Shown here: one piece after another, positions 3,606 to 61,784 of the stretch | Layout of the letters: each line of letters starts with the position of its first letter | Position numbering within the stretch: position 1 is the stretch's first letter | Assembly (NCBI GenBank): GCA_022844265.1 | Contig: JALHMA010000001.1 | Span: forward strand, 18,260 to 82,259 | DNA from: Saprospiraceae bacterium | GTDB taxonomy: Bacteria; Bacteroidota; Bacteroidia; Chitinophagales; Saprospiraceae | Direction of reading: 5' to 3' | DNA: 64,000 bases | Translations under genes and position numbers: made by a program | The notes under the pieces: model-generated | Told to the model about the DNA's origin: nothing | What the model saw: the letters and a program-made list of their open reading frames with translations, nothing else | The model's database searches: none

Positions 3606-3622
3606 AAGCCCAGACGTAAACG

Positions 3623-3700
3623 GTGTTTGGTGTTTGGTTTTTCGTGTTTGGGGGTACTTCGCTTTTGGCATCTTGTGGTGTAGGTTTACAGGCCTGAAAT
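3623..3700. repeat. Truncated (left-arm only) copy of the GTGTTTGG hairpin element family
   Basis: gtgtttggtgtttggtttttcgtgtttgggggtacttcgcttttggcatcttgtgg...ggcctgaaat aligns with the left arms and loops of the elements at 40718 and 42220. No complementary right arm follows. Confidence 0.6.
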
Positions 3701-3714
3701 ACCCAAGTCCAAAT

Positions 3715-3770
3715 CTCTCACCCTCTCACCCTCTCACCCTCTCACCCTCTCACCCTCTCACCCTCTCACC
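3715..3770. repeat. Perfect octanucleotide microsatellite (CTCTCACC)x7
   Basis: Counted directly: seven head-to-tail perfect copies. It is intergenic, lying 4 nt downstream of the histidine-kinase stop (3775-3777) and about 110 nt upstream of the haloperoxidase-like start at 3605. Confidence 0.95.
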
Positions 3771-7380: not shown

Positions 7381-7498
7381 AACCACAGCGTAAGAAACAT
7401 AAATGGAGGGAAGGGGCTGTCAGCAATGGCGGCCTCTTTTTTGTAACCCTCAACCCCCATAGCCATCAACAATTCAACATTCTCAACACGTTCAAGAT

Positions 7499-7960: not shown

Positions 7961-8084
7961 AAGGCAAGAAGCAAAGGGCAAACATGAGTCCATCCCTCTA
8001 TGCTTCAACCCTATTTTAAGCGACTTTTAAGGCCGTTATTGGGTCTTGGGACTTTCCTTTGTACGCTCTTGTAAAATCCAGATT

Positions 8085-10262: not shown

Positions 10263-10292
10263 AAATCACGCTCGTTTGGATTTTGAAAAAGG

Positions 10293-10329
10293 AGCCGCCT
10301 GCGATGATTCGGGGCGGCTTCTTTTTTTT
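10293..10329 (+). terminator. Rho-independent terminator downstream of the TonB receptor gene
   Basis: The stem pairs agccgcc (10293-10299) with ggcggct (10313-10319) and is followed by ttcttttttttg. An upstream A-tract makes it potentially bidirectional. Confidence 0.7.
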
Positions 10330-10338
10330 GAAAAAAAA

Positions 10339-10357
10339 TTGTGTGCTATTGACACAT
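10339..10357. promoter_or_regulatory. Candidate AraR-type operator (19-bp palindrome TTGTGTGCTATTGACACAT)
   Basis: It shares the TTGTGT-N7-ACACA dyad with the site at 11229-11247. It lies about 100 nt upstream of the Nudix regulator gene and 17 nt upstream of a TAccTTTG box. Confidence 0.5.
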
Positions 10358-11228: not shown

Positions 11229-11247
11229 TTGTGTCAAAATGACACAA
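11229..11247. promoter_or_regulatory. Candidate AraR-type operator (perfect palindrome TTGTGTCAAAATGACACAA)
   Basis: Perfect 8+3+8 dyad located 37 nt upstream of the first ara-cluster ATG (11284). Confidence 0.55.
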
Positions 11248-13290: not shown

Positions 13291-14781
13291 ATGTTTGATT
13301 TAAAGAAAATGGAGGTGTGGTTTGTCACGGGCAGCCAGCACCTGTATGGTGAAGAAACGTTGCGAAAAGTGGCGGAACATTCTCAAACAATTGCCCGCGC
13401 ACTGGATACTTCGGCCCAAATACCGGTTCGGGTGGTGTTCAAACCGGTGGTGAAGACGCCTGATGAAATTTACCAACTCTGCCAGGCTTCCAATACTGAT
13501 CCGAATTGTATCGGGATTGTCGCCTGGATGCATACGTTTTCCCCGGCTAAAATGTGGATTCGCGGTCTACAAACACTGCAAAAACCAATGTGCCACCTGC
13601 ATACGCAGTTCAACCGCGACATTCCATGGGGCAATATCGATATGGATTTTATGAACCTGAACCAGTCGGCGCATGGCGACCGGGAGTTCGGTTTTATGGT
13701 TTCCCGCTTGCGGCTGCGGCGAAAGGTAGTGGTCGGTCATTGGCAAGACCCGCAGGTACACGATCGGCTGAGCGTCTGGATGCGGGCCGCCGCAGCGCGA
13801 TTTGATTGGCAGGGCGCAAAATTTGCCCGGTTTGGCGACAATATGCGCCAGGTTGCGGTGACGGAAGGCGATAAAGTGGAAGCGGAAATCCAGTTCGGCT
13901 ACTCCGTAAATGGTTATGGCGTTGGCGATTTGGCAAAGTTGATCCGTGAAGTGTCAGATGGCGCCGTTCAACAACTCGTCGATGAATACAATGAAATGTA
14001 TCAACTGTCTTCCGCTCTGCGCAAAGGCGGTGCGGCGCATAACTCCCTGAAAGAAGCAGCCCGTATTGAAATCGGGATGCGCCAATTCCTGGAAGCGGGC
14101 GGTTTTAAAGGATTTACGGATACTTTTGAAGACCTGCACGGTTTAGTACAACTTCCGGGTATTGCCTCGCAGCGCCTTATGGCAGAAGGATACGGCTTCG
14201 GCGCTGAAGGCGACTGGAAAACGGCCGCATTGGTTCGCGCCGCGAAGGTCATGGCTGCCGGTTTGCCCGGCGGTAACTCGTTTATGGAGGATTATACCTA
14301 TCATTTTGATCCTGATAATCAGTTGGTGTTGGGCGCTCACATGCTCGAAATATGCCCTTCCATCGCTTCCGGCAAGCCTGCCTGTGAGATACACCCGCTC
14401 GGTATTGGCGGCAAGGCAGACCCCGTCCGGCTTGTATTCGATGTGGCTGGCGGTGCGGCGCTGAACGCATCGCTGATTGATATGGGCAATCGTTTCCGCC
14501 TCCTCGTCAATGAAGTGGAAGCCGTGGCGCCGACAGAAAAACTGCCCAATTTGCCCATTGCGCGCGTGTTGTGGAAATCATTACCTGACTTGAATACGGC
14601 CTGTGCAGCATGGATTTATGCGGGCGGCGCGCACCACACCGTGTTCAGCCAAAACCTGACGACGGAATACTTTGAGGATTTTGCTGAAATGTTCGACCTC
14701 GAACTGACGGTGATTGATGCAAAAACGGAGTTGCGGCAGTTTAAAAATGAGTTGAGGTGGAGCGAAGCTATTTATAAATGA
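13291..14781 (+). CDS. araA: L-arabinose isomerase
   Basis: The protein is 496 aa and begins [18 protein letters not shown]. It also contains [16 protein letters not shown] and MLEICPSIA, all typical of AraA. Confidence 0.95.
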
Positions 14782-14920
14782 TGAATGATGAGTGATGAAT
14801 GATGAGTGATGAATGATGAGTGATGAATGATGAATGCCGGGCGCGAAGCCAAACATTTATCATTCATCATTCCCTATTCATCATTCATCACTCATCATTT
14901 ATCATTCATAATTCATCATT
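14779..14920. repeat. Long word-repeat hairpin at the araA|araB junction
   Basis: The left arm is built of TGATGA[AG] words (14779-14836) and the right arm of their complement (14854-14920). The loop is ccgggcgcgaagccaaa. The element begins inside the araA stop codon and ends 4 nt before the araB ATG. Confidence 0.85.
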
Positions 14921-14924
14921 AACT

Positions 14925-16556
14925 ATGAATTATGTTATCGGACTTGACTACGGCACCGACTCCGTTCGCGCCCTGATTGCAGATGCTGCCGACGGGCGGG
15001 AAGTGTCTTCTGCCGTTTTTTACTACCCGCGCTGGAAGGCCGGGAAATACTGCAATCCGGGGGCTTCCATGTTTAGGCAGCATCCGCTCGATTACCTGGA
15101 AGGTTTGGAAGCATCTGTAAAAATGGCTTTGTCGCAGGCGCCTAAAGAAGTGGCTGACAACGTAGTCGGCATATCGGTCGATACAACAGGCTCCACGCCC
15201 GTTGCTGTCGACAAAAATGGTACGCCCTTGGCGTTGCTGCCCGAATTTGCGGAGAACCCGCACGGTATGTTCGTGCTCTGGAAAGACCATACCGCCAATG
15301 CGGAAGCAGAAGAAATTAACACCCTGGCACACCGTTGGGAAATCGATTTTACCAAGTATGTCGGCGGCATATATTCTTCCGAATGGTTTTGGGCAAAAAT
15401 CCTGCGAACCCTGCGGGTAGATGAAGCCGTCCGAAATGCCGCTTTTTCCTGGGTGGAGCATTGCGACTGGCTGTCCGCAGTGCTGCATGGAGATACGAAC
15501 CCGTTGACCCTGAAACGTTCCCGCTGTGCAGCCGGACATAAAGCCATGTGGCACGAAGAATTCGGGGGATTGCCGAGCGAGGCTTTTCTGACGCAACTCG
15601 ATCCGCTACTGGCAGGACTTCGCGATCGGCTTTACCGCCAAACCTACTCGTCAGATATGCCGATGGGTACGATTTCAAAGGAATGGGCACAGCGTCTGGG
15701 TTTACCCGAAAACGTGGTCGTGGGGGTCGGCGCGTTCGATGCCCACATGGGTGCTGTCGGGGCTGGGATCGAGCCGTATTCCCTGGTTCGGGTAATGGGA
15801 ACTTCTACCTGCGATATGTTGATTGCGCCCAACGAAGAGGTTGGCAACTTGCTCATTCGCGGCATTTGCGGACAAGTGGATGGCTCTATTTTGCCCGGCA
15901 TGCTGGGAATGGAAGCCGGTCAATCGGCTTTCGGCGACGTATATGCCTGGTTTCAAAACCTGCTGGCCTGGCCGCTGCGCGAATTTTTAAGCGAAGAAGA
16001 GGCCGAAAAAATGGTACATAAAATAATCCCGGCCCTGTCCGAAAAAGCCGCATTGTTGCCTGTTACGGAACACGATGCGGTAGCGCTTGACTGGTTCAAC
16101 GGCCGCCGTACACCTGATGCGAATCATACGTTGAAAGCAGCCATAGCAGGCTTGAATCTCGGTACGGACGCACCTCAAATATTTAAAGCGCTGGTGGAAT
16201 CCACGGCATTCGGCGCCAGGCGTATTGTCGAACGTTTCCAGTCCGAAGGCGTTCCGATCCGGCAGGTTATCGGCATTGGCGGAGTATCAAAAAAATCACC
16301 TTTTGTGATGCAAAACCTTGCTAATGTGTTGAATATGCCTATCAAAATTGTAGAATCAGAACAAGCCTGCGCACTGGGCGCGGCGATTTGCGCGGCGACG
16401 GCGGCGGGTGTTTACCAGACTATGGCTGCTGCACAGACTGCGATGGCTTCCGGTTATGATGCTACATTTCATCCACAACAGGATAGGGTAGCGGTGTATG
16501 AAAAATTGTATCAGAAGTATTTGGCACTGGGTGGTTTTGTTGAAAATCAATATTAG
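14925..16556 (+). CDS. araB: Ribulokinase
   Basis: It starts MNYVIGLDYGTDSVRAL (FGGY kinase N-terminus) and contains GTSTCDM and GIGGVSKKSPFVMQ. The upstream 35 codons of the track ORF (IIHHSLFIIHHSS...) are a translation of the hairpin and are excluded. Confidence 0.9.
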   Translation: MNYVIGLDYGTDSVRALIADAADGREVSSAVFYYPRWKAGKYCNPGASMFRQHPLDYLEGLEASVKMALSQAPKEVADNVVGISVDTTGSTPVAVDKNGTPLALLPEFAENPHGMFVLWKDHTANAEAEEINTLAHRWEIDFTKYVGGIYSSEWFWAKILRTLRVDEAVRNAAFSWVEHCDWLSAVLHGDTNPLTLKRSRCAAGHKAMWHEEFGGLPSEAFLTQLDPLLAGLRDRLYRQTYSSDMPMGTISKEWAQRLGLPENVVVGVGAFDAHMGAVGAGIEPYSLVRVMGTSTCDMLIAPNEEVGNLLIRGICGQVDGSILPGMLGMEAGQSAFGDVYAWFQNLLAWPLREFLSEEEAEKMVHKIIPALSEKAALLPVTEHDAVALDWFNGRRTPDANHTLKAAIAGLNLGTDAPQIFKALVESTAFGARRIVERFQSEGVPIRQVIGIGGVSKKSPFVMQNLANVLNMPIKIVESEQACALGAAICAATAAGVYQTMAAAQTAMASGYDATFHPQQDRVAVYEKLYQKYLALGGFVENQY

Positions 16557-16563
16557 AAATCAA

Positions 16564-16693
16564 ATGAAACACGGTTTTTTTACCACATAGTTCACATAGG
16601 GGTTTCACATAGATCACATAGCAAAATGATATGGACTATGTGATCTATGTGAAACCCCTATGTGAACTATGTGGTAAAAAAACCGTGTTTCAT
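16564..16693. repeat. Perfect 58-bp inverted repeat with 14-nt loop at the araB|abfA junction
   Basis: I checked base by base that 16564-16621 is the exact reverse complement of 16636-16693. The arms contain the word CACATAG four times. The element ends 14 nt before ATG 16708. Confidence 0.95.
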
Positions 16694-16707
16694 AAAAAAC
16701 ATCAACC

Positions 16708-18243
16708 ATGAAAAAAACGGTCTTACTGATCCTCATTTCAGGCGCTTTTCAGGCGCTTTTCTCCCAGAATCAAATCACCCTGAACGCTGACCTGGGCCGT
16801 GATACCATCAGCCGTCACATCTACGGGCACTTTGCCGAACACCTCGGACGCTGCATCTACGGCGGATTTTACGTAGGTGAAAGCAATACAAAAATCCCCC
16901 ACCGCGACGGTGTACGTACCGACCTGATTGAAGCGTTGAAAAAAATGAAAGTAGGTAACCTGCGCTGGCCGGGCGGTTGTTTTGCCGATACTTACCACTG
17001 GAAAGACGGCATAGGCCCAAAAGACAAACGACCAAGTATGAAAAATGTCTGGTGGGGTGGGGTGACCGAAGACAATAGTTTCGGCACACACGACTTCCTG
17101 AACCTCTGCGAAGCCATCGACGCGGAGCCTTATCTGGCAGGGAACGTGGGCAGCGGTACGGTGAAGGAATTGTCCGACTGGGTGGAATACACCAACCAGG
17201 ATTCCGGTAGCCCGATGACTGAGCTTCGCAAAGCCAATGGCCGCGAAAAACCCTGGAATGTCAAAATATGGGGCGTAGGCAATGAAGCCTGGGGCTGCGG
17301 CGGCAACATGAAGCCCGAGTACTATGCCAATATTTACCGGCAATATGCCACTTTTATGACCGACTGGGGCAACAGCGCCAAACTTTTCCGGGTAGCCTCA
17401 GGCGCCAGTGACGATGATTACAATTGGACGGAAGTGCTCATGCGCGATATCCCGCACAAGATGCTGGAAGGCGTGGCATTGCACCATTATTCTGTGATCG
17501 ACTGGGGTAAAAAAGGCTCCGCGACTAATTTTTCTGAAGAACTGTATTTCAAAACCATGAAAACGGCGCTGGATATGGAGGAATTTGTCACGCGCCACTC
17601 GACCATCATGGACAAATATGATCCGAAGAAAAAAGTTGCGCTCGTTGTAGATGAATGGGGCGGCTGGTACGATGTGGAACCTGGCACCAATCCGGGCTTT
17701 TTGTACCAGCAAAATACCATGCGCGATGCCATGATTGCCGGCACAACGCTGAATATTTTTCACAACCATTGCGACCGTGTTCGCATGGCCAACCTCGCCC
17801 AAACAGTCAATGTACTGCAAGCCGTCATATTAACGGAGGGCGAAAAAATGCTGCTCACGCCGACGTATCACGTACTGGAAATGTACAATGTACACCAGGA
17901 TGCGCTGCTTTTGCCGATTGATGTGAGGGTAAGTAACTATATTTTCGGTACGGAAAAACTGCCTGCCGTTTCTGTTTCAGCCAGCCGCAACAAGGCAGGG
18001 AAAGTGCATATTTCTTTGGTGAATATTGACCCGAATCGTTCGCAGGAAGTCTCGATTTCGTTGCGCGGCGTAGCAGCAAAAAATGTATCAGGGCGTATTT
18101 TGAGTTCCCCTAAAGTACAGGATCACAATACGTTCGATCAACCGGATCGTATCAAACCGGTAGATTTTAAGGGTGCAAGCATCAGCGGTGATGTACTTAA
18201 ATTAACCATGCCTCCGGTATCGGTGGTGGTGCTGGCGTTGTAG
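16708..18243 (+). CDS. abfA: GH51 alpha-L-arabinofuranosidase
   Basis: It contains [22 protein letters not shown] and VDEWGGWY, the canonical AbfA catalytic regions. Confidence 0.9.
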
Positions 18244-18274
18244 AAGACTGATAACTAATACAATAGCACACAAG

Positions 18275-18368
18275 TTTTTTTGAGTATTCGAGTATGCGAG
18301 GATTTGAGTATAAATGATTCGTTATCAGTCAGATACTCGAATACTCAAATCTTCAAATACTCAAAAAA
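18275..18368. repeat. GAGTAT/ACTCGAATACTC hairpin element, copy 1 (abfA|araD junction)
   Basis: The 53-nt core at 18302-18354 is identical to 30142-30194. The arms are tttttgagtattcgagtat... and ...atactcgaatactcaaa. A 12-nt direct repeat actgataactaa flanks it (18247-18258 and 18373-18384). Confidence 0.85.
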
Positions 18369-18387
18369 GTTAACTGATAACTAAACA

Positions 18388-19095
18388 ATGGGCAAATACA
18401 AGTCATTAAAAGAAGCGGCCTACGAAGCCAACATGGAGATACTCCACCAGAAATTAGCCATTTACACTTTTGGCAATGTATCGGCCATTGATCGTGCGGC
18501 GGGCATCGTTGCCATCAAACCCAGCGGGGTGCCGTATTTGGAACTGAAGCCGGAAGATATGGTGCTGGTGGATTTGGACAATACGGTGGTGGAAGGTAGT
18601 AAACGGCCCTCTTCCGATACAAAAACGCATGTTCTTTTGTACCGTCATTTTGAAAAAATCGGCGGTATTTGCCATACGCATTCCACCTACGCTGTGGCCT
18701 GGGCGCAGGCCATGCGGGCCATTCCCAACCTGGGTACCACCCATGCCGATCACCTGGTGGCTGCCGTTCCGGTCACGGAAGTGATGTCCGATGATATGAT
18801 TTTGGGAGATTATGAGCATGAAACCGGCAATCAGATATTAAATGTGTTCAAAAAACACAATCTTTCGCCCGAAGAAGTGGAAATGGTGCTGGTGGCCTGT
18901 CACGGCCCTTTTACCTGGGGAAAGGACGCCGCCAAGGCAGTCTACAATGCCACCGTGCTGGAAGAACTGGCAAAAATGGCTTACCTGACCCTGCAAATCA
19001 ACCCTGCAACGCCTCCCATCAAACAGACCCTGATAGACAAACATTATTTTAGGAAACACGGCCAGGGCGCTTATTATGGGCAAAGCGGATATTAG
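18388..19095 (+). CDS. araD: L-ribulose-5-phosphate 4-epimerase
   Basis: The protein is 235 aa and has class II aldolase/AraD motifs (GNVSAIDR, ICHTHSTYA, GHGPFTWG). Confidence 0.93.
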   Translation: MGKYKSLKEAAYEANMEILHQKLAIYTFGNVSAIDRAAGIVAIKPSGVPYLELKPEDMVLVDLDNTVVEGSKRPSSDTKTHVLLYRHFEKIGGICHTHSTYAVAWAQAMRAIPNLGTTHADHLVAAVPVTEVMSDDMILGDYEHETGNQILNVFKKHNLSPEEVEMVLVACHGPFTWGKDAAKAVYNATVLEELAKMAYLTLQINPATPPIKQTLIDKHYFRKHGQGAYYGQSGY

Positions 19096-19200
19096 TTATT
19101 CGTTATCAGTTATTCGTTATTCGTGTGCTAACCCTCGGCTTTTATTTTTCACCCGATCAAAGGTTACCACACGAATAACAAATAACTAATAACGAATAAC
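19095..19200. repeat. Word-repeat hairpin (GTTATTC words) at the araD|transporter junction
   Basis: The 33-nt arms at 19095-19127 and 19168-19200 are complementary at 31 of 33 positions. The 40-nt loop has extra internal pairing (taacc/ggtta, tcgg/ccga). Confidence 0.85.
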
Positions 19201-19235
19201 TAACAAAAACATTAACCAACAACAATCTTCAAACA

Positions 19236-20852
19236 ATGCAAGGATTTGACACACTTGACTGGATCGTTATTGGAGTGTACTTTCTCCTCCTAATGGGGAT
19301 AGCGCTCTGGGTAATCCGGCAAAAACAGAACAACACGGAAGACTACTTTCTGGCAGGCCGCAACATTGGCTGGTTTGTGGTAGGCGCTTCCATTTTTGCT
19401 TCCAACATCGGCTCTGAACACGTCGTAGGGCTTGCCGGCGCAGGTGCGGGTGGTAAAATTCCGATGCTCATTTATGAACTGCACGCGTGGCTGGTGCTGG
19501 CTTTGGGCTGGATTTTCCTGCCTTTTTACCTGCGCAGCGGTGTTTTTACCATGCCTGAGTTTTTGGAACGGCGTTTTAACTCCAAAACACGCTGGTTTCT
19601 GACTGTTTTTTCCCTGCTGGCTTATGTACTCACCAAGGTTTCGGTGACGGTGTATGCGGGCGGTATTGTCATTGCGTCGCTGTTGCATATTGATTTTTGG
19701 TTTGGAGCGCTCCTCACCGTGGTACTTACAGGCGCTTACACCGTGCTGGGCGGTATGCGGGCGGTGGTGTATACCGAGGCATTACAAACCGTTGTGCTGG
19801 TGATCGGCGCCGGTACCCTGACCTTTGTCGGCCTGAACGCTGTAGGCGGCTGGGACGGTATGAGAAGTTCGCTGGAACCCGGATACCTGAACATGTGGCG
19901 GCCTGCCGATGACCCTGAATTCCCCTGGCCCTCCCTGGTGATTACCAGTACGATTGTGGGTATCTGGTACTGGTGTACCGATCAGTATATCGTACAGCGC
20001 GCCCTGGCGGCACAAAATATTACCCAGGGTCGGCGCGGTACCATTTTCGGTGCATTGCTCAAGCTGTTGCCTGTTTTTCTGTTCCTCATTCCCGGTGTGG
20101 TTGCTTTGGCCTTGAAAAACAGGGGCGAACTGAGTTGGGACACACCCGATCAGGCTTTTGCCAGCTTGCTGATGGAGAAAATGCCCTCCGGATTGAGAGG
20201 GTTGGTAGCAGCCGGCTTGCTGGCAGCGCTGATGAGTTCATTGGCTTCGGTGTTTAATTCATGTTCCACGCTGTTTACGGTGGACGTTTACAGAAAACTG
20301 TATCCCGACACTCCGGAGAAAAAATTGGTAAATGTCGGGCGCGTGGCTACCGCCATCGTTGTAGTGTTGGGTATTGCCTGGATACCGATTATGCAAAACA
20401 TTTCCGGGGTGCTGTATGAATACCTGCAGTCGGTGCAGTCTTATATCGCGCCGCCGATAACCGCTGTTTTCCTGCTGGGTATTTTCTCTAAACGAATCAA
20501 CGCCCAGGGCGCCATGGCTACGCTGGTCGCCGGTTTATCAGTAGCAGCGGTGCGACTTGTCCTGGAATTGAACCGCCATTCGCTGGACCCCGATGGTATG
20601 CTCTTCGCATTTGCCAACATGAACTTCCTCACATTTGCTGCCTGGTTCTTCCTGTTTTCCATTACAGTTTGTGTAGTTGCCAGTTTACTGACGCCTGCGC
20701 CTTCCGCTGCTCAGGTAGAAGGGCTTACTTTCGGAACCCTCAGCAAACAGCAAAAAGCAGACAACCGCAGCAGTTACAATATCTGGGATATCCTGGTTTC
20801 CCTGCTTGTTATTGGAATCGTGGTGTATGTTATGGTTAGTTTCACCGGATAA
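19236..20852 (+). CDS. Sodium:solute symporter (SGLT/SSS family), probable arabinose/pentose transporter
   Basis: The protein is 538 aa and multi-TM, with SSS signatures (GRNIGWFVVGASIFASNIGSEH, YTVLGGMRAVVYTE). Substrate assignment rests on its position inside the ara cluster. Confidence 0.88.
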   Translation: MQGFDTLDWIVIGVYFLLLMGIALWVIRQKQNNTEDYFLAGRNIGWFVVGASIFASNIGSEHVVGLAGAGAGGKIPMLIYELHAWLVLALGWIFLPFYLRSGVFTMPEFLERRFNSKTRWFLTVFSLLAYVLTKVSVTVYAGGIVIASLLHIDFWFGALLTVVLTGAYTVLGGMRAVVYTEALQTVVLVIGAGTLTFVGLNAVGGWDGMRSSLEPGYLNMWRPADDPEFPWPSLVITSTIVGIWYWCTDQYIVQRALAAQNITQGRRGTIFGALLKLLPVFLFLIPGVVALALKNRGELSWDTPDQAFASLLMEKMPSGLRGLVAAGLLAALMSSLASVFNSCSTLFTVDVYRKLYPDTPEKKLVNVGRVATAIVVVLGIAWIPIMQNISGVLYEYLQSVQSYIAPPITAVFLLGIFSKRINAQGAMATLVAGLSVAAVRLVLELNRHSLDPDGMLFAFANMNFLTFAAWFFLFSITVCVVASLLTPAPSAAQVEGLTFGTLSKQQKADNRSSYNIWDILVSLLVIGIVVYVMVSFTG

Positions 20853-20865
20853 GCATAGGGCAAAA

Positions 20866-20948
20866 TTATTGAGATATTAAGATATTGGGATATTCTATTG
20901 ACAATCAATAAATGGAGTGATCATATCCCAATATCTTAATATCAATAA
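20866..20948. repeat. Word-repeat hairpin (GATATT words) at the transporter|galM junction
   Basis: ttattgagatattaagatattgggatat (20866-20893) pairs with atatcccaatatcttaatatcaataa (20923-20948), with a 2-nt bulge. Confidence 0.8.
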
Positions 20949-20989
20949 ATATCATACTTGCACTTAAAAATTGAAAATATACATCAGCC

Positions 20990-22141
20990 ATGAAAAAAAT
21001 TGACCTGGCCCTCTGTATTGTACTTTTCGGAACTCTCTTTGCATTGTATTGCTGCAAACAAACCGCTCCCACGCCCAAGGCCACGATTGAAAAGAGTGCT
21101 TTTGGCGCCTTGCCCGATGGGCGAACGGCCGATTTGTACACCTTGCGGAATGAGCAGGGCATGACCGTACAGATTACCAATTTCGGCGGCGCCATTACTT
21201 CCTGGACGGCCCCGGATAAAACGGGCAAATACGAGGATATTACACTGGGTTGTGATTCACTTGCCGGCTACCTGCGCGGCACCCCTTTTTTTGGAGCGTT
21301 GATCGGACGGTACGGCAATCGCATCGCCAAAGGGAAATTCACACTGGATAGCGCCACGTATTCATTAGCAACCAATAATATCGGCAATCACCTGCACGGC
21401 GGCATCGTCGGTTTTGATAAGGTATTGTGGTCGGCTAAGGTAATCGAACATGAAAGACCAACGCTGCAACTCACGTATGTGTCAAAAGATGGCGAGGAAG
21501 GTTATCCCGGCGAACTGTCTGTCGAAGTGATATACACTTTGCTAAAGGAAAATGCCTTAAGTATACACTATTCAGCGACTACAGACAAACCAACGGTAGT
21601 GAACCTGACCAACCATGCGTATTTCAACCTCGCGAACGGGGGCAAAGGCGATATTCTTCAACATGAATTGATGTTGAGTGCCGATGCTTTCTTACCGGTG
21701 GACAGTACGCTGATCCCGACGGGTGAACAGCGCCCGGTGAAAGGAACGGTATTCGATTTTACGCAGCCCACAAAAATCGGTGCGCGTATCGACGATACCG
21801 CTGATGTTCAGATCAAATACGGGTTGGGTTATGACCATTGCTGGGTATTCAATAAGGCGCACAGTAGTACGGCGCAATTGATTGCTACCCTGTACGAACC
21901 CACTTCGGGTCGCCTGCTGGAGGTATTGACTACAGAACCCGCCATCCAGTTTTATTCGGGCAATTTTCTGGATGGAACAGTGATCGGAAAAGGTGGCGTG
22001 GCGTATCAAAAACGCTCCGGTCTTTGCCTCGAAACACAACATTTTCCGGATTCGCCCAACAAGCCGGATTTTCCGAGCACGGTGCTGCGGCCGGGGGAAA
22101 AGTACCAGACGACAACGGTGTACCGATGCTCTGTTAAATAA
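20990..22141 (+). CDS. galM: Aldose 1-epimerase (mutarotase)
   Basis: It has a signal/lipoprotein-like N-terminus and contains GRYGNRIAKGKF, NHLHGG, NLTNHAYFNL and CLETQHFPDSPN. Confidence 0.9.
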   Translation: MKKIDLALCIVLFGTLFALYCCKQTAPTPKATIEKSAFGALPDGRTADLYTLRNEQGMTVQITNFGGAITSWTAPDKTGKYEDITLGCDSLAGYLRGTPFFGALIGRYGNRIAKGKFTLDSATYSLATNNIGNHLHGGIVGFDKVLWSAKVIEHERPTLQLTYVSKDGEEGYPGELSVEVIYTLLKENALSIHYSATTDKPTVVNLTNHAYFNLANGGKGDILQHELMLSADAFLPVDSTLIPTGEQRPVKGTVFDFTQPTKIGARIDDTADVQIKYGLGYDHCWVFNKAHSSTAQLIATLYEPTSGRLLEVLTTEPAIQFYSGNFLDGTVIGKGGVAYQKRSGLCLETQHFPDSPNKPDFPSTVLRPGEKYQTTTVYRCSVK

Positions 22142-22267
22142 GTGTGTATGGTGTTTCGTGTTTAGTGTTTGGGGCTTCGCCTTTGGCGACTGTAGGTAAT
22201 TCAGCCAAAATACACACAGTCGCCAAAGGCGAAGCGCCCTAAACACTAAATACCAAACACGAAACAC
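22142..22267. repeat. GTGTTTGG-family hairpin element (galM|amidohydrolase convergent junction)
   Basis: The left arm is gtgtgtatggtgtttcgtgtttagtgtttggggcttcgcctttggcgactgt. The right arm is acagtcgccaaaggcgaagcgccctaaacactaaataccaaacacgaaacac. The element fills the gap between the two stop codons exactly. Confidence 0.9.
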
Positions 22268-28278: not shown

Positions 28279-28490
28279 ATAACATGTTAAGTAGATGAAA
28301 ATTTAAGAACACTCTGTATAACACAGTGCCAAATGAAAGCCAATAATCCAAGCGTAAGGAGTTGCATCATGTCAGGAGGTATGCTTCATTTCACCTCTAT
28401 CATTGACCTGTGATGGATTGCAGCTCTGCCCAATTAACCTGATGTTGCGCTTGTTATGGCTAATAAACTCCCGAGTACCCCATTACCATC

Positions 28491-28518
28491 AGCCACGCTG
28501 CAAAGCGTGGCTTTTTTT
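28491..28518 (+). terminator. Rho-independent terminator
   Basis: The stem pairs agccacgc with gcgtggct around the loop tgcaaa and is followed by seven T residues. It lies 213 nt after the stop of the 142-aa gene. Confidence 0.8.
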
Positions 28519-30113: not shown

Positions 30114-30211
30114 AAATTTTTGAATATTCGAGGATGCGAGTATTTGAGTATAAATGATTCGTTATCAGTCAGATACTCGAATACTCAAATCTTCGGATAC
30201 TCAAAAAAATT
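30114..30211. repeat. GAGTAT/ACTCGAATACTC hairpin element, copy 2
   Basis: The 53-nt core at 30142-30194 is identical to 18302-18354. A 10-nt direct repeat tattaagtac flanks it (about 30093-30102 and 30222-30231). Confidence 0.85.
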
Positions 30212-30920: not shown

Positions 30921-31030
30921 GGTTGATGAGGTTTATAAAGGTTGATGAGGTTGATATACATCTACTCGATAAGGCTCCCTTTCGAGTGGCTGTATATCAA
31001 CCTCATCAACCTTTATAAACCTCATCAACC
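30921..31030. repeat. GTTTATAA/GGTTGATGAG hairpin element
   Basis: The perfect 38-nt arms are 30921-30958 and 30993-31030. The 34-nt loop contains actcgat...cgagtggct, which is shared with the element at 58067-58179. Confidence 0.9.
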
Positions 31031-31666: not shown

Positions 31667-31718
31667 AAGAGATGGTTCTGTTTATTTGATGTGAAGAAAA
31701 ACTGCTGCTGATCGATTA

Positions 31719-31780
31719 TTTGAAGATTCGAGTATTCGACTAATTACGAATGCCAATACTCGTATACTCGAATCTTCAAA
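31719..31780. repeat. GAGTAT-family hairpin, copy 3 (diverged)
   Basis: tttgaagattcgagtat (31719-31735) pairs perfectly with atactcgaatcttcaaa (31764-31780). Confidence 0.75.
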
Positions 31781-31847
31781 TACTCCATAAAACACTCGAC
31801 GTTGAAACTGACAACAAGGTTACAGGCAAGGCTGCATTTTCACAATA

Positions 31848-31883
31848 GAAAAAGGTGAATGCAGCGCTGCATTCACCTTTTTC
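31848..31883. terminator. Perfect 18+18 palindrome, probable bidirectional terminator
   Basis: The sequence is gaaaaaggtgaatgcagc|gctgcattcacctttttc, with A/T tracts on both sides. It lies 30 nt downstream of the minus-strand gene ending at 31913. Confidence 0.75.
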
Positions 31884-31912
31884 TAACTTACTTTAACCAG
31901 ATTTAACCAAAA

Positions 31913-40262: not shown

Positions 40263-40340
40263 CCTCAACCCTCTCTCAACAACTCAACCTCTCAACCTCT
40301 CAACCCTCAACCCTCAACAACTCAACCTCTCAACAAATTA
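40263..40340 (+). repeat. C/A-rich CTCAAC word tract with no complementary arm
   Basis: The sequence cctcaaccctctctcaacaactcaacctctcaacctctcaaccctcaaccctcaacaactcaacctctcaac contains about 10 CTCAAC words. It forms the whole leader upstream of the mscL ATG at 40349. Confidence 0.8.
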
Positions 40341-40348
40341 AACAGCGT

Positions 40349-40717
40349 ATGTGGACCCAACTCAGAACCTTTCTCATGCGGGGAAGTATTCTCGAATTAG
40401 CCGTAGGTGTCATCATTGGTGCGGCATTTGGTAAAATTGTCTCAGCCCTGGTAGATAATATTTTGATGCCCCTGATCGGCATTGCCATGGGCGGTGTAAA
40501 TTTTCAAGCACTCAGCGCTAAAATACTTGGTGTAGATATTGGCTTCGGCGCCTTTTTGCAGGCGATCTTTGATTTTACGCTGATCGGCGTAGTCTTGTTT
40601 TTGCTGCTGCGGATAGCGGGAAAAAATCCTGTACCTGAGCCTCCGCCTCCACCAGCAATTACCACCGAAGAATTGCTGACGGAAATCCGCGATTTATTGA
40701 AAGAACGTGGGAAATAG
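40349..40717 (+). CDS. mscL: Large-conductance mechanosensitive channel
   Basis: FLMRGSILELAVGVIIGAAFGKIVSALVDNILMPLIG is canonical MscL. The track ORF start at 40169 translates the low-complexity tract and overlaps the previous gene, so I reject it. Confidence 0.9.
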   Translation: MWTQLRTFLMRGSILELAVGVIIGAAFGKIVSALVDNILMPLIGIAMGGVNFQALSAKILGVDIGFGAFLQAIFDFTLIGVVLFLLLRIAGKNPVPEPPPPPAITTEELLTEIRDLLKERGK

Positions 40718-40856
40718 TGTTTGGTGTTTAGGATTTGGTGTTTAGGGCGCTTCGCCCTTGGTCTGTGTGGATTGTTTGGCCTGAATCCCCACAGATGCCA
40801 AGGGCGAAGCGCCCTAAACACCAAACACTAAACACCAAATCCTAAACACCAAACAC
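40718..40856. repeat. GTGTTTGG-family hairpin element (mscL|amidohydrolase convergent junction)
   Basis: The arms are built of GTGTTT[AG]G words plus the core gggcgcttcgcccttgg/ccaagggcgaagcgccc. The right arm carries about two extra heptamers. The element fills the gap from stop to stop. Confidence 0.9.
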
Positions 40857-42100
40857 TACTTCAGCACTGTCCCGTTCTTTACTTTAAATGCGGAAGCCCT
40901 GATTTTCAGGATATTGGTAAACGGATCACCATTTAATACCAGAAAACTCGCTTCATAACCTTCTTTCAGTTTGCCGATTTTCCGGTTTGGGAAAATAGCG
41001 CCGGGGGTGTTTTCACAAACGATCCTGAGCAAATCGGGGCCATTTTGTTTGGACAAACCATTCAGGTAATTGATTTCGCTGCGGAGGGTGCGTTGCGGAT
41101 CGTCTGATGCGATAATCAGGTTGACCCCGCTGCTCATTAAACGGCTAAACATTTTGGTGTGAAAATCCTTTACCGCAGGCCGTGGAGTGGCGGATTGTGC
41201 ATGAGACAACAGCGTGGCAACGGGCGTTCTTTTCTTGGATAATTTTTTAAGATCGTTATTGGAAATCATAAACCTGGCCGGATCACCCGAACCGTCCCAG
41301 TTATGTCCCGGCAGGTTTGCAAATCCATCCACCCCGATTTTTATTCCAATCTCAACATCAGTGCCTGTTTCTACCCAGGCCAGAACGCGCAGTTTCGCTT
41401 TATGCGCCTTTTTCACGACGGCTTTTGCCATGTCGACAGAAAGTCCTTTACTTTCTTTACCGCCATTGATCTGTGCATCCAGCAGGTAAATCATCAGGAC
41501 GTCCGGTTTTTGCGCAATGATTTTTTCCCAGTTGGCATCCAGCGCGTCTTTGTTATCTGCAAACCAATAAGCGTCGCCCAGCAATTTGCGACCGGTTTTG
41601 ATCTTGTTGTAAGCATTTGACCATTCGGCCGGATTGGGGACATCCTGTGCGGGGCCTTCAAATTTGAGAAACGGTTCGCCCAGGGAACAGGTTATGGCGC
41701 CGTTGGTGAAAATGGCATCGGGTGTATTGGATTTGTTCATCAAAGGCTGAACCGTTTTGCGGCCTTCCTGGGTATTATTCAAAATCTGCACGTAAAATAC
41801 ACCTTCATCCAGGTATTGTTTCGCCATGTTCGCTGCAGAACGGTTGCCGGAAATACTGGAACAACCGGCATCGGCCATCGGAGGAATCACCCAGTGCCCA
41901 TCCAGATCGACGATGGAATCTATCTTAACTGGGGCTTTTTGAGTGAGTAATCCGTTGCTGACATACCAGGTTGCTTTGACAAATTCAAGTCCGGTAAACC
42001 ATTGTCCGTTTTTGTATTCGTAATTTTTTCCGGCAGACTGGGCAGATGAAAACTGGCTTAAAAGGCAAAAAACAAGCGTGGAGAAGAGTAACTTCTTCAT
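40856..42100 (-). CDS. Secreted amidohydrolase-superfamily-like protein
   Basis: It has a signal peptide (MKKLLFSTLVFCLL). The C-terminus GYEASFLVLNGDPFTNILKIRASAFKVKNGTVL resembles the amidohydrolase composite-domain ending. The metal-binding HxH motif is not evident, so the call is tentative. Confidence 0.45.
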   Translation of the reverse strand: MKKLLFSTLVFCLLSQFSSAQSAGKNYEYKNGQWFTGLEFVKATWYVSNGLLTQKAPVKIDSIVDLDGHWVIPPMADAGCSSISGNRSAANMAKQYLDEGVFYVQILNNTQEGRKTVQPLMNKSNTPDAIFTNGAITCSLGEPFLKFEGPAQDVPNPAEWSNAYNKIKTGRKLLGDAYWFADNKDALDANWEKIIAQKPDVLMIYLLDAQINGGKESKGLSVDMAKAVVKKAHKAKLRVLAWVETGTDVEIGIKIGVDGFANLPGHNWDGSGDPARFMISNNDLKKLSKKRTPVATLLSHAQSATPRPAVKDFHTKMFSRLMSSGVNLIIASDDPQRTLRSEINYLNGLSKQNGPDLLRIVCENTPGAIFPNRKIGKLKEGYEASFLVLNGDPFTNILKIRASAFKVKNGTVLK

Positions 42101-42219
42101 AAGGTAAGTTGATTCGCTAATAAATAAGGTGAGTAAACAGCGTTCAGGGCTAAAAACAAACGGCAAAAGTAGCAGGACTGGCGGGCTTCTTCAGCAGGTT
42201 AACAAACTGTTCAGGAATC

Positions 42220-42360
42220 GTGTTTGGTGTTTAGTGTTTGGTATTTAGTGTTTGGGGCGCTTTGCCTTTGGCATCTGTGGGAATTCAGGCCAAAGCAACT
42301 CACAGATGCCAAAGGCGAAGCACCCTAAACACCAAATACCAAATACCAAATACCAAACAC
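42220..42360. repeat. GTGTTTGG-family hairpin element downstream of mtgA
   Basis: The left arm is gtgtttggtgtttagtgtttggtatttagtgtttggggcgctttgcctttggcatctgtg. The right arm is cacagatgccaaaggcgaagcaccctaaacaccaaataccaaataccaaataccaaacac. Confidence 0.9.
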
Positions 42361-42361
42361 G

Positions 42362-45672: not shown

Positions 45673-45784
45673 AAAAGAATGTTATTTTATTTTATTTTTA
45701 AATTATGGTTCAAAAACATACTTTTGTGGAAACTGTTTTGCTTTTTCTAAAAAAAGTAAAAATTTAATTTAGCGTTCTCTCCAA

Positions 45785-45970
45785 CTTAGAGTTGTGCTAA
45801 AAGGCCCAGCGGGCCTATATCTTTGTAGCAGTGTTGGATTTAATTTGGTACCCGGCCCAGCGGGCCGGTATTTATTCGATAAAGATACCGGCCCGCTGGG
45901 CCGGATAGAATTTTCTTTGGCGTTACTACAAAGATATAGGCCCGCTGGGCCTTTTGACACAACCCCAAGT
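45785..45970. repeat. Nested GC-rich palindrome carrying four copies of GGCCCAGCGGGCC
   Basis: The outer perfect 30-nt stem pairs 45799-45828 with 45926-45955. The inner perfect 20-nt stem pairs 45852-45871 with 45885-45904. The 13-mers lie at 45803, 45854, 45890 (reverse complement) and 45939 (reverse complement). Confidence 0.9.
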
Positions 45971-46038
45971 TTAGCGCCGATTTTGATGCGTTTGTCCTGA
46001 GGGAAGGGTGAGGCCGGCAAAAGTAAATACTTGTAACT

Positions 46039-46759: not shown

Positions 46760-46900
46760 ACTAATTTTGCACACCTACTTAACATTTGTGCATGGGCTAA
46801 GCCGAGCATACGTTTACTAAACTTAAAAAGTTTAGTAAACGTCGCCAAATAGAATGCTCAAAACCTTTTGGAGCGATGTACAACTAATTTTGCACACCTA
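46760..46900. promoter_or_regulatory. 18-nt direct repeat pair (each with a TAATTTTG -7 box) bracketing a perfect 15+3+15 palindrome
   Basis: The repeat actaattttgcacaccta occurs at 46760-46777 and 46883-46900. The palindrome acgtttactaaactt-aaa-aagtttagtaaacgt lies at 46810-46842. The esterase ATG at 46904 follows the second repeat after 3 nt. Confidence 0.6.
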
Positions 46901-46903
46901 ATT

Positions 46904-47824
46904 ATGAAAAATTTCCTGCTCTTTTCCCTGCTTCTGTGTCTGTGCGCGCAACTGTCTGCACAACTGCCCCAGACTGCATCCGGCACGGTACAACGTTTTG
47001 AAAATTTCCCTTCCAAATACGTCAGTCCCAGGCATGTCGACGTCTGGCTGCCGGATGGTTACTCCACCCGGGAGAAGTATGCGGTGCTGTACATGCACGA
47101 CGGACAAATGTTGTTCGATTCCGCCACTACCTGGAATAAACAGGAATGGGGCGTGGATGAAACAATGAGCCGACTGCTCGCAGCAGGGAAAATCAGAAAC
47201 TGCATCGTGGTGGGTATCTGGAACAGCGGCAAAACGCGCCACTCCAATTATTTTCCTCAAAAACCTTTTGAATCCTTGCCCGAAAGCCTCCAGGACTCTC
47301 TCCTGTATCTTGCCAAACGAGACCAGCAATCGGGTTTGTTCTCAATCGCGGTTAACTCCGACCACTACCTGCATTTTCTGGTGCACGAACTCAAACCATT
47401 CATCGACAGCCGTTTTTCAACCAAAAAAGATCGGAAAAACACCTTTATCGCCGGATCGAGTATGGGCGGCCTGATCTCCATGTACGCCATCTGCGAATAC
47501 CCGAAAGTATTCGGCGGCGCTGCCTGCCTGTCCACCCACTGGCCGGGCACTTTTGCGGTGGAAAACAACCCGATCCCCGACGCTTTTATACAGTACATGC
47601 GCACTCATTTGCCCAGCCCGAAAACGCATACATTTTACTTTGATTACGGTACTGCTACCCTGGATGCGCTCTACGAACCGTTTCAAATCAAGGCCGATCA
47701 GGTCATGGCTGCCAAAGGTTATACCGCTAAAAACTGGATCACCCGGAAATTTGAAGGGGAAGATCATTCGGAAAGGGCATGGCGGGGGAGGCTGGGGATT
47801 CCGCTGGAGTTTATTTTGAAGTAG
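46904..47824 (+). CDS. Secreted alpha/beta-hydrolase esterase (enterochelin-esterase-like 'putative esterase' family)
   Basis: It has a signal peptide and a nucleophile elbow GSSMGG within FIAGSSMGGLISMY. It contains VLYMHDGQMLFD. Confidence 0.7.
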   Translation: MKNFLLFSLLLCLCAQLSAQLPQTASGTVQRFENFPSKYVSPRHVDVWLPDGYSTREKYAVLYMHDGQMLFDSATTWNKQEWGVDETMSRLLAAGKIRNCIVVGIWNSGKTRHSNYFPQKPFESLPESLQDSLLYLAKRDQQSGLFSIAVNSDHYLHFLVHELKPFIDSRFSTKKDRKNTFIAGSSMGGLISMYAICEYPKVFGGAACLSTHWPGTFAVENNPIPDAFIQYMRTHLPSPKTHTFYFDYGTATLDALYEPFQIKADQVMAAKGYTAKNWITRKFEGEDHSERAWRGRLGIPLEFILK

Positions 47825-48030
47825 TTATGAGTTATGAGTTATGAGTTATGAGTTATGAGTTATGAGTTATTGGAGTTTCATGCTGGAATGGGAAAATGGA
47901 GGTTGCATTCTTTCCCGTTCCAGCATGAAACTCCAATAACTCATAACTCATAACTCATAACTCATAACTCATAACTCATAACTCATAACTTATAACTCAT
48001 AACTCATCATTCATAACTCATAACTCATAA
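47825..48030. repeat. Heptamer-array hairpin: (TTATGAG)x6 ... core stem ... (CTCATAA)x13
   Basis: Counted directly. Six perfect TTATGAG units span 47825-47866. The core stem pairs ttattggagtttcatgctggaa with ttccagcatgaaactccaataa. Thirteen CTCATAA-type units (10 perfect) span 47940-48030. Confidence 0.95.
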
Positions 48031-58066: not shown

Positions 58067-58179
58067 GGGTTTATAAGTTTATGGGTTTATGAGTTTATAA
58101 AAGCCACTCGATGAGGGAGACAATATCTCACTATCCGAGTGGCTTTTATAAACTCATAAACCCATAAACTTATAAACCC
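58067..58179. repeat. GTTTATAA-family hairpin: perfect 44-bp stem, 25-nt loop
   Basis: I checked that 58067-58110 is the exact reverse complement of 58136-58179. It lies between the convergent glucosaminidase and secG genes. It shares the words tttatgggttta, gtttataaa and ccactcgat/cgagtggct with 30904-31030. Confidence 0.95.
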
Positions 58180-58193
58180 CCAAAAAAGGATTC

Positions 58194-58460: not shown

Positions 58461-58465
58461 GTTGT

Positions 58466-59263: not shown

Positions 59264-59356
59264 GTGTAAGGTGTTTGGTGTTTCGTTTTTGGTGTTTCAT
59301 ATCCGGAATGCTCAAAGCAACGCAGCCCAAACCCCAAACACCAAAAACCAGACACC
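59264..59356. repeat. Degenerate GTGTTTGG-family element
   Basis: ggtgtttggtgtttcgtttttggtgttt partially pairs with aaaccccaaacaccaaaaaccagacacc. It fills the lptE-like|hypothetical junction. Confidence 0.6.
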
Positions 59357-59364
59357 CAAAAATA

Positions 59365-61477: not shown

Positions 61478-61693
61478 GAATAATATTGTTGGTCTGTAAG
61501 CAGATGCGCATTTTGCTTTTTGCAATTTTGCACTTTTACTTATCGGTCAGACGTATACGCAGGAAATTTATGTAACAACAGGATGAAAGTGCAAAGGTAG
61601 GGAAAGCGATGCTGCCAAAGGAGTGTGTCTGAAAAATGTTCACTAGTGTGGCATTTCCCTCATTTTGTATCTTTACGCCAACATAAGAAAAGG

Positions 61694-61764
61694 GCAAAAT
61701 TGCAAAGCGCAAAAAGCAATGTAACGCATTGATTTGCATTGCTTTTTGCGCTTTACAATTTTGC
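61694..61764. repeat. 28-nt-arm hairpin in the guaA/cysM divergent region
   Basis: gcaaaattgcaaagcgcaaaaagcaatg (61694-61721) pairs with cattgctttttgcgctttacaattttgc (61737-61764) with one mismatch. A T-rich tail follows. It ends 20 nt before the cysM ATG. A partial third copy lies at about 61507-61535. Confidence 0.8.
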
Positions 61765-61784
61765 TCTTTTATTTACCTTGACAC

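Follow-up and report, generated by a model that had tools for sequence, protein, structure and literature searches.

What are the long hairpins that fill every junction of an arabinose gene cluster, and how did they come to be there? The question is raised by a 64,000-nucleotide stretch of DNA from a Saprospiraceae bacterium (GenBank assembly GCA_022844265.1, contig JALHMA010000001.1, positions 18,260 to 82,259 of the forward strand), which we refer to as the window. An earlier note on this sequence had described six consecutive hairpins, at the five junctions from araA to galM and between galM and the convergent gene that follows it, each with arms built from a short tandem word. Our answer is that the six hairpins are probably mobile or duplicative palindromic repeats of a lineage-specific intergenic class, reshaped by slippage and template switching and tolerated in operon transcripts. 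The lineage is a Saprospiraceae/Lewinellaceae clade that is represented by metagenome-assembled genomes (MAGs) only, and the arabinose cluster is a place where six of these elements happen to stand in a row in this strain.

We verified the gene map of the window with Pfam and NCBIfam. The NCBIfam matches give the gene order araA, ribulokinase (araB), GH51 arabinofuranosidase (abfA), araD, an SSS transporter and galM; a gene for a NUDIX/AraR-type regulator precedes them. When we read the sequence, each of the six junctions proved to be filled by a tandem-word arm, a short unique centre and the reverse-complement arm (Table 1). Tandem Repeats Finder reported arrays of period 7-9 in both arms of all six, so both the reading and the repeat finders bear out the hairpins where the earlier note had placed them. 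From araA-araB to galM-convergent, the gaps are 143, 151, 144, 140, 137 and 127 nt long. The stems are AT-rich and 17-58 bp in length, with arm complementarity of 58 nt at 100% (16564-16693), 60 nt at 88% (14777-14920) and 42 nt at 93% (19092-19203). Some of them touch the neighboring genes: the first TGA in the araA-araB word array doubles as the stop codon of araA (14779-14781), and the last hairpin directly adjoins the stop codons of both genes that flank it. The distances from the hairpin ends to the next start codon had been given as 4, 14, 19, 35 and 41 nt, and these are correct.

We folded each hairpin as RNA and compared it with 200 dinucleotide shuffles. For each of the six, 0 of the 200 shuffles matched the native fold energy, and all six are far below the shuffled controls (z between -3.9 and -22.7), which was the check that had been proposed for them. 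A search of the whole window at Rfam gathering thresholds gave no match to any curated covariance model, and there are no tRNA or tmRNA genes in the window.

The claim that these are not simple terminators holds, as they have no U-tract, their stems are long and AT-rich, and canonical terminators are found elsewhere in the window. A terminator consensus scan called none of the six ara hairpins, and none of them has a 3' T-tract. Canonical terminators with a GC stem and a T-tract are present at 7408-7444, 10286-10329, 28490-28518 and 31846-31885. Because these ordinary terminators exist in the window, we treat the word hairpins as a class apart from them; one word hairpin, at 31717, lies between a canonical terminator and the next gene. 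On the plus strand of the five co-directional gaps we found no TAnnTTTG box, as had been reported. In relatives, the hairpin-free versions of ara junctions are only 22, 48, 58, 20 and 7 nt long. Based on these short junctions, together with the lack of promoter boxes and of terminator tails, read-through of the hairpins is likely, and the suggestion that the genes are co-transcribed through the stems appears to be right.

We also looked for a mark of selection on the RNA. The sense strand folds better than the antisense in 4 cases, worse in 6 and equally in 2, so that G.U pairing shows no mark of selection for the sense RNA. Since there is no sense-fold advantage and the loops occur in both orientations, we see no sign of selection on one transcript. 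From the sequence, we infer that the hairpins are probably neither terminators nor arabinose-specific regulators.

How common are such structures outside the cluster? A sliding-window profile of minimum free energy could not separate AT-rich hairpins from GC-rich coding sequence, so we replaced it with a direct scan for gapless inverted repeats (score of at least 14, loop of at most 130 nt). The scan found 19 long inverted repeats in the window, or 0.30 per kb, and 18 of the 19 are within the 10.6% of the sequence that is intergenic (binomial p=5e-17). The proposed enrichment of hairpins at gene junctions is therefore real in this window. The earlier note had counted about 19 recurrences of the same architecture, and that is indeed the number of inverted repeats, but the tandem-word type accounts for only about 14-15 of them. 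Its examples from divergent promoter regions fared less well: the one at 61688 is loosely word-type, but the one at 45783 is a nested palindrome, and the one at 53095 has a 107-nt loop and no words.

To count placement we used all of the Bacteroidota loci that we compared, which come to about 2.4 Mb. Of 41 word hairpins, 31 are in co-directional gaps, 8 in convergent gaps and 2 in divergent gaps, while these gap classes make up 61%, 12% and 27% of the intergenic length. Word hairpins are thus depleted in divergent gaps (2/41 against 27%, p=2.7e-4). In co-directional gaps, the median distance between the hairpin and the upstream stop codon is 9 nt, with 12 of the 31 touching or overlapping this codon, and the median distance from the hairpin to the next open reading frame (ORF) start is 37 nt. 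The architecture had been described as not purely a 3'-end signal, and the depletion in divergent gaps and the closeness to the upstream stop speak against this.

The two arms are also not equivalent. The 5' arm has more G than C in 38 of 42 word hairpins, and less in the other 4 (p=6e-8). A palindrome reads alike on both strands, so this difference between the arms is intrinsic. In the window, the 5' arms are rich in stop codons, and the 3' arms of 12 of 13 hairpins have no start codon or a single one. We infer that the polarity may be a filter imposed by selection at gene junctions. Stop codons have no C and start codons all have a G, so only the polarity with a G-rich 5' arm suits a reading frame on the left and a leader without a Shine-Dalgarno sequence on the right. 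Alternatively, the polarity might come from avoidance of exposed C-rich nascent RNA, which would load Rho.

We believe that the elements spread as DNA because some of them fall into dispersed families. We grouped them by alignment and blastn clustering over the window and the corresponding loci of two relatives, L161 and L164, and found two families with 6 copies each across the three loci. In family A, arms of GTGTTTRG words enclose a GGCGCTTCGCC..TTGGC core. Its copies are at 22142, 40715 and 42219; the hairpin at 59270 is related, and 3622 is half of a copy. Family B combines GAGTATTC arms with the loop AAATGATTCGTTATCAGTCAG; the copies at 18275 and 30117 have an identical 21-nt loop, and there is a diverged copy at 31717. 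The hairpins at 30921 and 58067 have a CCACTCGATnAGG core and their words in common. In the ara cluster, two hairpins out of six, those at 18275 and 22142, belong to repeat families. It is therefore true inside the cluster that each junction has a different word, but words and cores recur elsewhere in the window, and several of the hairpins are members of dispersed families.

The most direct sign of spread is in family B. Copies at non-orthologous junctions of the window and L164 are 88/91 and 83/85 identical (97-98%), whereas the abfA genes of the two are 85% identical overall and 67% identical at third codon positions. Neutral intergenic DNA would be far more diverged than these copies are, so family B must be actively copied or have recently moved between lineages. 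There are also cases of nesting. In L164, a family B copy is within a family A arm, and in L161 a palindrome of about 370 nt (3198-3757), with a TTTTTTTACCACA-type hairpin nested centrally, lies between the stop codon of a TonB receptor and a canonical terminator. That terminator is conserved in the window (10286-10329), where the insertion is missing. We did not find the specific cores outside this clade among the Bacteroidota loci compared; word hairpins with other words occur sporadically in distant loci (L087, L091, L097, L107 and L154). The earlier suggestion of a repeat-generating or mobilising activity fits these dispersed families and the turnover at junctions.

Matches to families A and B in the plasmid collection (Psychrobacter, Acinetobacter, Neisseria) were partial and involved tandem arrays only, and we rejected them as chance word similarity. 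On plasmid records H1-H15 (Psychrobacter, Acinetobacter), multi-copy tandem arrays match the ATACTCnAATACTC words of family B over 37-43 nt. These arrays are probably iterons that resemble family B by chance.

We placed the host among Saprospiraceae/Lewinellaceae MAGs based on AraB and AbfA homologues. Ordered by AbfA identity to the window, the relatives are L161 (97%), L168 (97%), L001 (96%, with AraB at 92%), L165 (91%), L164 (90%) and L081 (85%), and a further one, L002, has an AraB that is 76% identical. Close relatives have 0.19-0.33 long inverted repeats per kb, and most of the other Bacteroidota loci have 0-0.1. The claim of a genome-wide system is thus supported to the extent that the density of these loci points to elements that are widespread in this lineage, but most other Bacteroidota loci are sparse.

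A comparison of orthologous junctions had been proposed, and it revealed both presence/absence and word turnover (Table 1, last column). Close relatives have three to five such elements in the ara cluster, and these are partly different ones. At SSS-galM, the hairpin belongs to a segment of 115 nt that the window and L168 have but L161 lacks, and the difference starts right after the stop codon TAA. At araB-abfA, L001 has a degenerate version of the CACATAG hairpin. Decayed copies are found at L001 6637-6706, in the 3' arm at L161 araA-araB and in the L164 araB-abfA remnant. The araB-abfA leader, ..GTGTTTCATAAAAAACATCAACC-ATG, is retained whichever hairpin occupies the junction. At the other end of the elements, the last 4-5 codons of araA and its stop codon come from the outer words of the occupant, giving ..SEAIYK-stop in the window (AIYK-stop at 14767-14781), ..SEKVFGV-stop in L161 (KVFGV-stop at 8071-8085) and ..NERVYSV-stop in L164 (RVYSV-stop at 8014-8028). 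The elements remodel protein C-termini, and the junction hairpins are facultative, replaceable and short-lived.

At galM-convergent in L165 (15900-16152), a palindrome of 253 nt has 97-nt arms with ACGGAT-type words and nested GC hairpins, and the whole gap folds at -210.9 kcal/mol.

Elements that stay in place are reshaped there. At araA-araB, the TGATGAA words of L001 take up 28 nt more than those of the window, and the 5' arm in the window contains a 14-nt unit repeated 3.9 times at 100% identity with no mirror in the 3' arm. The hairpin at 47823 has (AGTTATG)x6.9 on its 5' side and (ATAACTC)x13.6 on its 3' side, which means that expansion happened on one side only. Such changes in word copy number fit replication slippage. 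The arms also change together. In the CACATAG hairpins of the window and L168, the nucleotides between words differ, including insertions and deletions, and every difference is mirrored in the other arm of the same genome. Spacers are inverted at araA-araB (the window compared with L001 and L165), at galM-convergent (the window compared with L168) and at araD-SSS, where L161 and L165 are 52/58 identical as reverse complements and 36/53 identical in the forward direction. The loops of family B copies likewise occur in both orientations. Polymerase template switching homogenises the arms of inverted repeats and inverts their spacers (PMC8604942), and work on quasipalindrome mutagenesis gives a template-switch account of inverted-repeat arms (PMC7202029). 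The arm homogenisation and spacer inversion that we see match the described outcome of template switching between arms, although recombination between the arms with gene conversion would give the same picture.

Putting these results together, each element has a core and a loop that are unique or particular to its family, and on either side of them stand tandem arrays of a 7-9 nt word in inverted orientation. The elements spread as DNA, as near-identical dispersed copies, clean presence/absence and family swaps in one gap show. They are also reshaped in place: word number changes, which fits slippage, the arms mirror each other down to their insertions and deletions, and spacers are flipped. 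The survivors are filtered; they are found at or over the upstream stop and out of divergent promoter gaps, with a G-rich, C-poor 5' arm and a G-poor 3' arm. In the arabinose cluster they would be transcribed within the polycistronic mRNA and tolerated there. At most, they might act as RNA hairpins that protect 3' ends or direct processing, as proposed for repetitive extragenic palindromic (REP) sequences and for short tandemly repeated repetitive (STRR) sequences.

Several observations count against our reading. The 64-kb window has no gene for a transposase, an integrase or a REP-associated tyrosine transposase (RAYT), and we found no consistent target-site duplication or terminal tag. Four filled/empty comparisons gave no consistent duplication, and neither did the flanks of families A and B. 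The SSS-galM filled/empty comparison has a possible TAA duplication. On both sides of the family B copy at 18275 there is a ACTGATAACTAA (18247-18258 and 18373-18384), which may be a 12-bp target duplication, or may be the halves of a TAACTGA-type heptamer array that was split; in relatives without family B at abfA-araD, a TAACTGA-type array precedes araD. With no duplication or tag, it is the distribution of the copies that argues for calling these elements mobile. In addition, three junctions are always occupied, by differing families: araA-araB in 7/7 genomes, the junction after araD in 6/6 and galM-convergent in 5/5. Pure junk would not obviously occupy the same junctions always, so there may be selection for a hairpin at these sites, or they may be hot spots for insertion. 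The arm polarity and the closeness to stop codons could also reflect function rather than tolerance. Finally, the type of hairpin at araA-araB (TGATGAA or GTGTTT) co-varies with the AraB N-terminus (MNY or MKY) and not with AbfA distance. Homologous recombination between strains may move junction alleles, and this may explain some of the replacement without transposition.

The hairpins might instead be intercistronic RNA elements under selection, whose stems block 3'-5' exonucleases or are cut by RNase III, so that the stability of each cistron tunes the operon. A stability or processing role of this kind has been suggested for REP at malE-malF, for STRR hairpins at hupS-hupL and for the sites where RNase III cuts between the early genes of phage T7. 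We think that this is possible but not probable, and it partly overlaps with our reading because a repeat can be co-opted. The position just after the upstream stop, the depletion in divergent gaps and the strong arm polarity are what one would expect of such elements, pairing is maintained through changes on both sides, and three junctions have an occupant in all of the genomes examined, albeit from different families. For STRR hairpins, higher stability of transcripts or coupling of translation has also been proposed (PMC2670836). However, abfA-araD, araB-abfA and the junction after SSS are hairpin-free in several close relatives, which makes the hairpins facultative, and decayed copies exist. 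The sense strand folds no better than the antisense, the loops stand in both orientations relative to transcription, and mirrored insertions and deletions over a short divergence fit copying better than stepwise compensatory selection. A quite different role, as terminators without a U-tract ("I-shaped") with a separate promoter for each ara gene, is very improbable. Hairpins do lie downstream of genes, in convergent gaps as well, and long stems can pause RNA polymerase. But there is no 3' T-tract, several hairpins have a T-run on the 5' side and an A-run on the 3' side, which is the reverse of terminator polarity, and canonical terminators are used elsewhere, in one case in the same gap as a word hairpin. 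The gaps also have no TAnnTTTG box, and junctions of 7-58 nt in relatives leave no room for promoters.

There are also alternatives at the level of DNA. The hairpins could be REP elements or REPINs in the strict sense, mobilised by a RAYT (an IS200/IS605-like tyrosine transposase) encoded elsewhere in the genome. They are intergenic palindromes of high density that form several families, favor the 3' ends of genes and differ from strain to strain, as is typical of REPs (PMC3733652). We consider this improbable. The elements are 80-170 nt long with arms of 17-73 bp, not units of 20-40 bp, and the flanks of the window hairpins have no GTAG/CGTC tag or common tetranucleotide but end in word arrays or T/A runs. 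At least 8 unrelated words or cores in 64 kb would need many cognate enzymes, and no RAYT is in the window. Protein-binding or insulator sites in the DNA (operator arrays), or integron attC-like sites between cassettes, are hardly credible: a different hairpin of 57-141 bp at each junction does resemble a cassette array, and tandem words resemble iterons, but the words vary between sites and orthologues, which does not suit a single binding protein. We saw no RYYYAAC/GTTRRRY core sites, the window has no integrase, and the ara gene order is conserved across Bacteroidota, which is not cassette-like. We give next to no weight to assembly artefacts such as fold-back chimeras. Amplification or long-read errors can create long perfect palindromes, but orthologous hairpins are at the same junctions in six independent assemblies (NCBI, JGI, ENA), which refutes this explanation.

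A broader reading, which we consider unlikely but worth stating, is that these are an undescribed class of non-autonomous elements, "tandem-word palindromes", rebuilt by slippage and template switching, spread by a structure-recognising activity and domesticated as junction modules. The stop-rich, G-rich 5' arm would close the upstream frame, and the start-free, G-poor 3' arm would be the leader of the next gene. To our knowledge, the phylum lacks Shine-Dalgarno initiation. If this reading were true, a single phenomenon with a common mechanism would underlie STRR hairpins, TAACTGA arrays and these elements.

Do the elements that we read as reshaped mobile repeats belong to a named class? The earlier note could not match them to one, and this does not stand, since STRR heptamer hairpins have been described in filamentous cyanobacteria, and REP sequences with the related BIMEs (bacterial interspersed mosaic elements) and MITEs (miniature inverted-repeat transposable elements) are close analogues. 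Of the described kinds, the cyanobacterial STRR hairpin comes closest. Its tandem units of 7 bp are able to form a hairpin and lie between hupS and hupL in several genera, with proposed roles in transcript stability or translational coupling (PMC2670836). Both kinds have tandem heptamers, form hairpins, are intergenic, including between co-transcribed genes (which is likely here), and have many copies per genome. The word period in our set is 7 in 27/44 word hairpins and 8 in 14/44. The differences are that the host here is in the Saprospiraceae (Bacteroidota) and not among heterocystous cyanobacteria, that there are many words (at least 8 in 64 kb) compared with the three fixed heptamers of STRR, and that the stems are far longer (up to 73 bp, and 97 bp in L165), with family-specific, non-repetitive cores. 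For the elements described here, copy dispersal, spacer flipping and arm homogenisation are documented.

REP and BIME are abundant intergenic palindromes for which roles in mRNA stabilisation or termination have been proposed (PMC3733652, PMC3116915). Like REP, BIME and REPINs, our elements fall into several families, differ from strain to strain, favor the 3' ends of genes as well as co-directional or convergent gaps, and probably form part of transcripts, but they are larger, have tandem-word arms and lack the GTAG/CGTC tag. Hairpin MITEs (Correia/CREE, ERIC, RUP, Nezha) are similar in size (90-170 nt), are almost wholly self-complementary, and share with our elements dispersed near-identical copies, presence/absence polymorphism and co-transcription with neighbors. 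For our elements, in contrast, we found no consistent target-site duplication beyond the possible TAA at SSS-galM, their arms are made of short tandem words, and their boundaries shift by slippage.

Heptamer arrays are a further relative. Over-representation of heptamers has been reported (PMC4692102; introduction of PMC4679880), with intergenic arrays, often by the upstream ORF, in Xanthomonas and Nostoc (PMC4692102) and TAACTGA arrays before start codons in Beggiatoaceae, cyanobacteria and five Bacteroidetes (MacGregor 2015, PMC4679880). Like those, our arrays have 7-nt intergenic units close to a neighboring ORF; the known arrays are direct, whereas here an array is paired with an inverted copy around a core. 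TAACTGA-like arrays stand before the start codon at 2/6 junctions only, as TTAACTGATAACTAAACA-ATG at araD (18370-18387) and as the 3' arm of the 19092 hairpin at SSS, and they are longer in L161, L165 and L168. As for template-switch mutagenesis, the arm homogenisation and spacer inversion that it predicts (PMC8604942, PMC7202029) are exactly the pattern of our orthologues. It is a mutational mechanism and not an element class, however, and in this case hundreds of long palindromes would be subject to it again and again. We found no description of such elements in Saprospiraceae or Haliscomenobacter in the literature. In our judgement, they are a variant that resembles known intergenic repeats and not a separate category.

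If the density in the window holds genome-wide, there would be one long palindrome per 3-4 kb, or on the order of a thousand or more per genome, and few known bacteria would be as laden with palindromes as these MAG lineages. Such palindromes probably break up the short-read assemblies of the lineages. The orthologues (97%, 96%, 91%, 90% and 76% protein identity) provide a natural time course of turnover at single junctions, in which one can see words expand, arms homogenise, spacers invert, families replace one another and copies decay. This gives a handle on two old questions, the origin of heptamer arrays (STRR, long simple-sequence repeats) and the birth and upkeep of REP-like palindromes. 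It also bears on how Bacteroidota, without Shine-Dalgarno sequences, translate cistrons that start 4-40 nt after a stem of -80 to -100 kcal/mol.

Table 1. Hairpins, other inverted repeats and arrays in the window, with folding free energy (dG, kcal/mol), z-score against shuffles, and what occupies the same junction in relatives.
Feature	Position	Arms, words and core	Setting	dG	z	Same junction in relatives
araA-araB hairpin	14777..14920	arms (TGATGAA/TGATGAG)n, loop GCCGGGCGCGAAGCC		-88.8	-14.7	TGATGAA-type in L001, L165, as in the window; GTGTTT-type (family A-like) in L161, L168; family A and a family B copy in L164; CACATAG-type in L002
araB-abfA hairpin	16564..16693	perfect 58-bp CACATAG-word palindrome, T7 run and A7 run as borders		-100.2	-22.7	CACATAG-type in L168, as in the window; ACGGAT-word hairpin in L161, L165; 58-nt remnant in L164
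abfA-araD hairpin	18275..18368	family B, GAGTATTC words, loop AAATGATTCGTTATCAGTCAG		-33.7	-3.9	distinct 224-nt structure in L161; small GC hairpin only in L164, L165, L168
araD-SSS hairpin	19092..19203	5' arm GTTATTC/GTTATCA words, 3' arm ATAACNA (TAACTGA-like) words		-49.6	-12.9	GTTATC/TAACTGA-type in L161, L165, L168, as in the window; family B in L164
SSS-galM hairpin	20866..20948	GATATT words	137-nt junction	-35.1	-4.6	hairpin in L168, junction likewise of 137 nt; 22-nt junction in L161
galM-convergent-gene hairpin	22142..22267	family A, GTGTTTRG words, core GGGGCTTCGCCTTTGGCGACTGT		-77.2	-13.1	GTGTTT-type in L161, L164, L168, as in the window; 253-nt ACGGAT-type palindrome in L165
Half family A element	3622..3770	(GGTGTTT)x4 and core, then unrelated perfect direct array (CTCTCACC)x7
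Family B copy	30117..30207	87/92 identical to 18275	between two minus-strand genes
Word hairpin	30921..31030	GGTTGATGAGG / GTTTATAAA words, core ACTCGATAAGG		-84.8
Diverged family B-like hairpin	31717..31782		same gap as canonical terminator 31846-31885
Canonical bidirectional terminator	31846-31885	among the 19 inverted repeats
Direct-only array	40275..40336	(CTCAACAA/CTCAACCT)x8, no inverted partner	plus strand	0
Family A copy	40715..40862		convergent gap, mscL and hypothetical gene
Family A copy	42219..42361		ends at stop codon (42362) of upstream minus-strand gene
Nested palindrome, not word-type	45783-45971	four GGCCCAGCGGGCC motifs	divergent gap upstream of MarR gene
15-bp perfect palindrome, not word-type	46810-46842
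Largest word hairpin in window	47823..48030	73-nt arms, 72/73 matching		about -130
Perfect 21-bp inverted repeat	53095-53243	107-nt spacer, no words	straddles annotated DUF3667 gene start
Word hairpin	58067..58179	GTTTATRA words, core CCACTCGATGAGGG	convergent gap
Short GGTGTTT-word hairpin, family A-linked	59270..59362
Loosely word-type hairpin	61688..61770	GCAAAAN words	only such hairpin of the window in a divergent gap

Some of the features in Table 1 touch on the annotation. The element at 3622-3770 overlaps the annotated 5' end of a PAP2-family ORF (2217-3671), which makes the start of that ORF doubtful. The direct array at 40275-40336 is a G-free, CA-rich leader that fills the gap just before the true mscL start at about 40349; the Pfam MscL match begins only at residue 61 of the long ORF. 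In the DUF3667 gene, the Pfam domain does not begin until residue 122, and the annotated start may therefore be too early. The convergent gap after the hairpin at 58067 is 452 nt long and GC-rich, and 58180-58465 may hold an unannotated short minus-strand gene.

The outer arms of the nested palindrome at 45783-45971 (GTTGTGCTAAAAGG ... CCTTTTGACACAACCCCA) resemble those of the 224-nt abfA-araD structure of L161 (11537-11760). They also resemble the AraR-operator-like palindrome TTGTGTCAAAATGACACAA at 11229. TTGTGT..ACACAA palindromes are found at 11229-11247 and 10339-10356, upstream of a glycoside hydrolase (GH) gene and of the NUDIX/AraR-type regulator. L161, L164, L165 and L168 conserve these two palindromes, which are probably the AraR operators.

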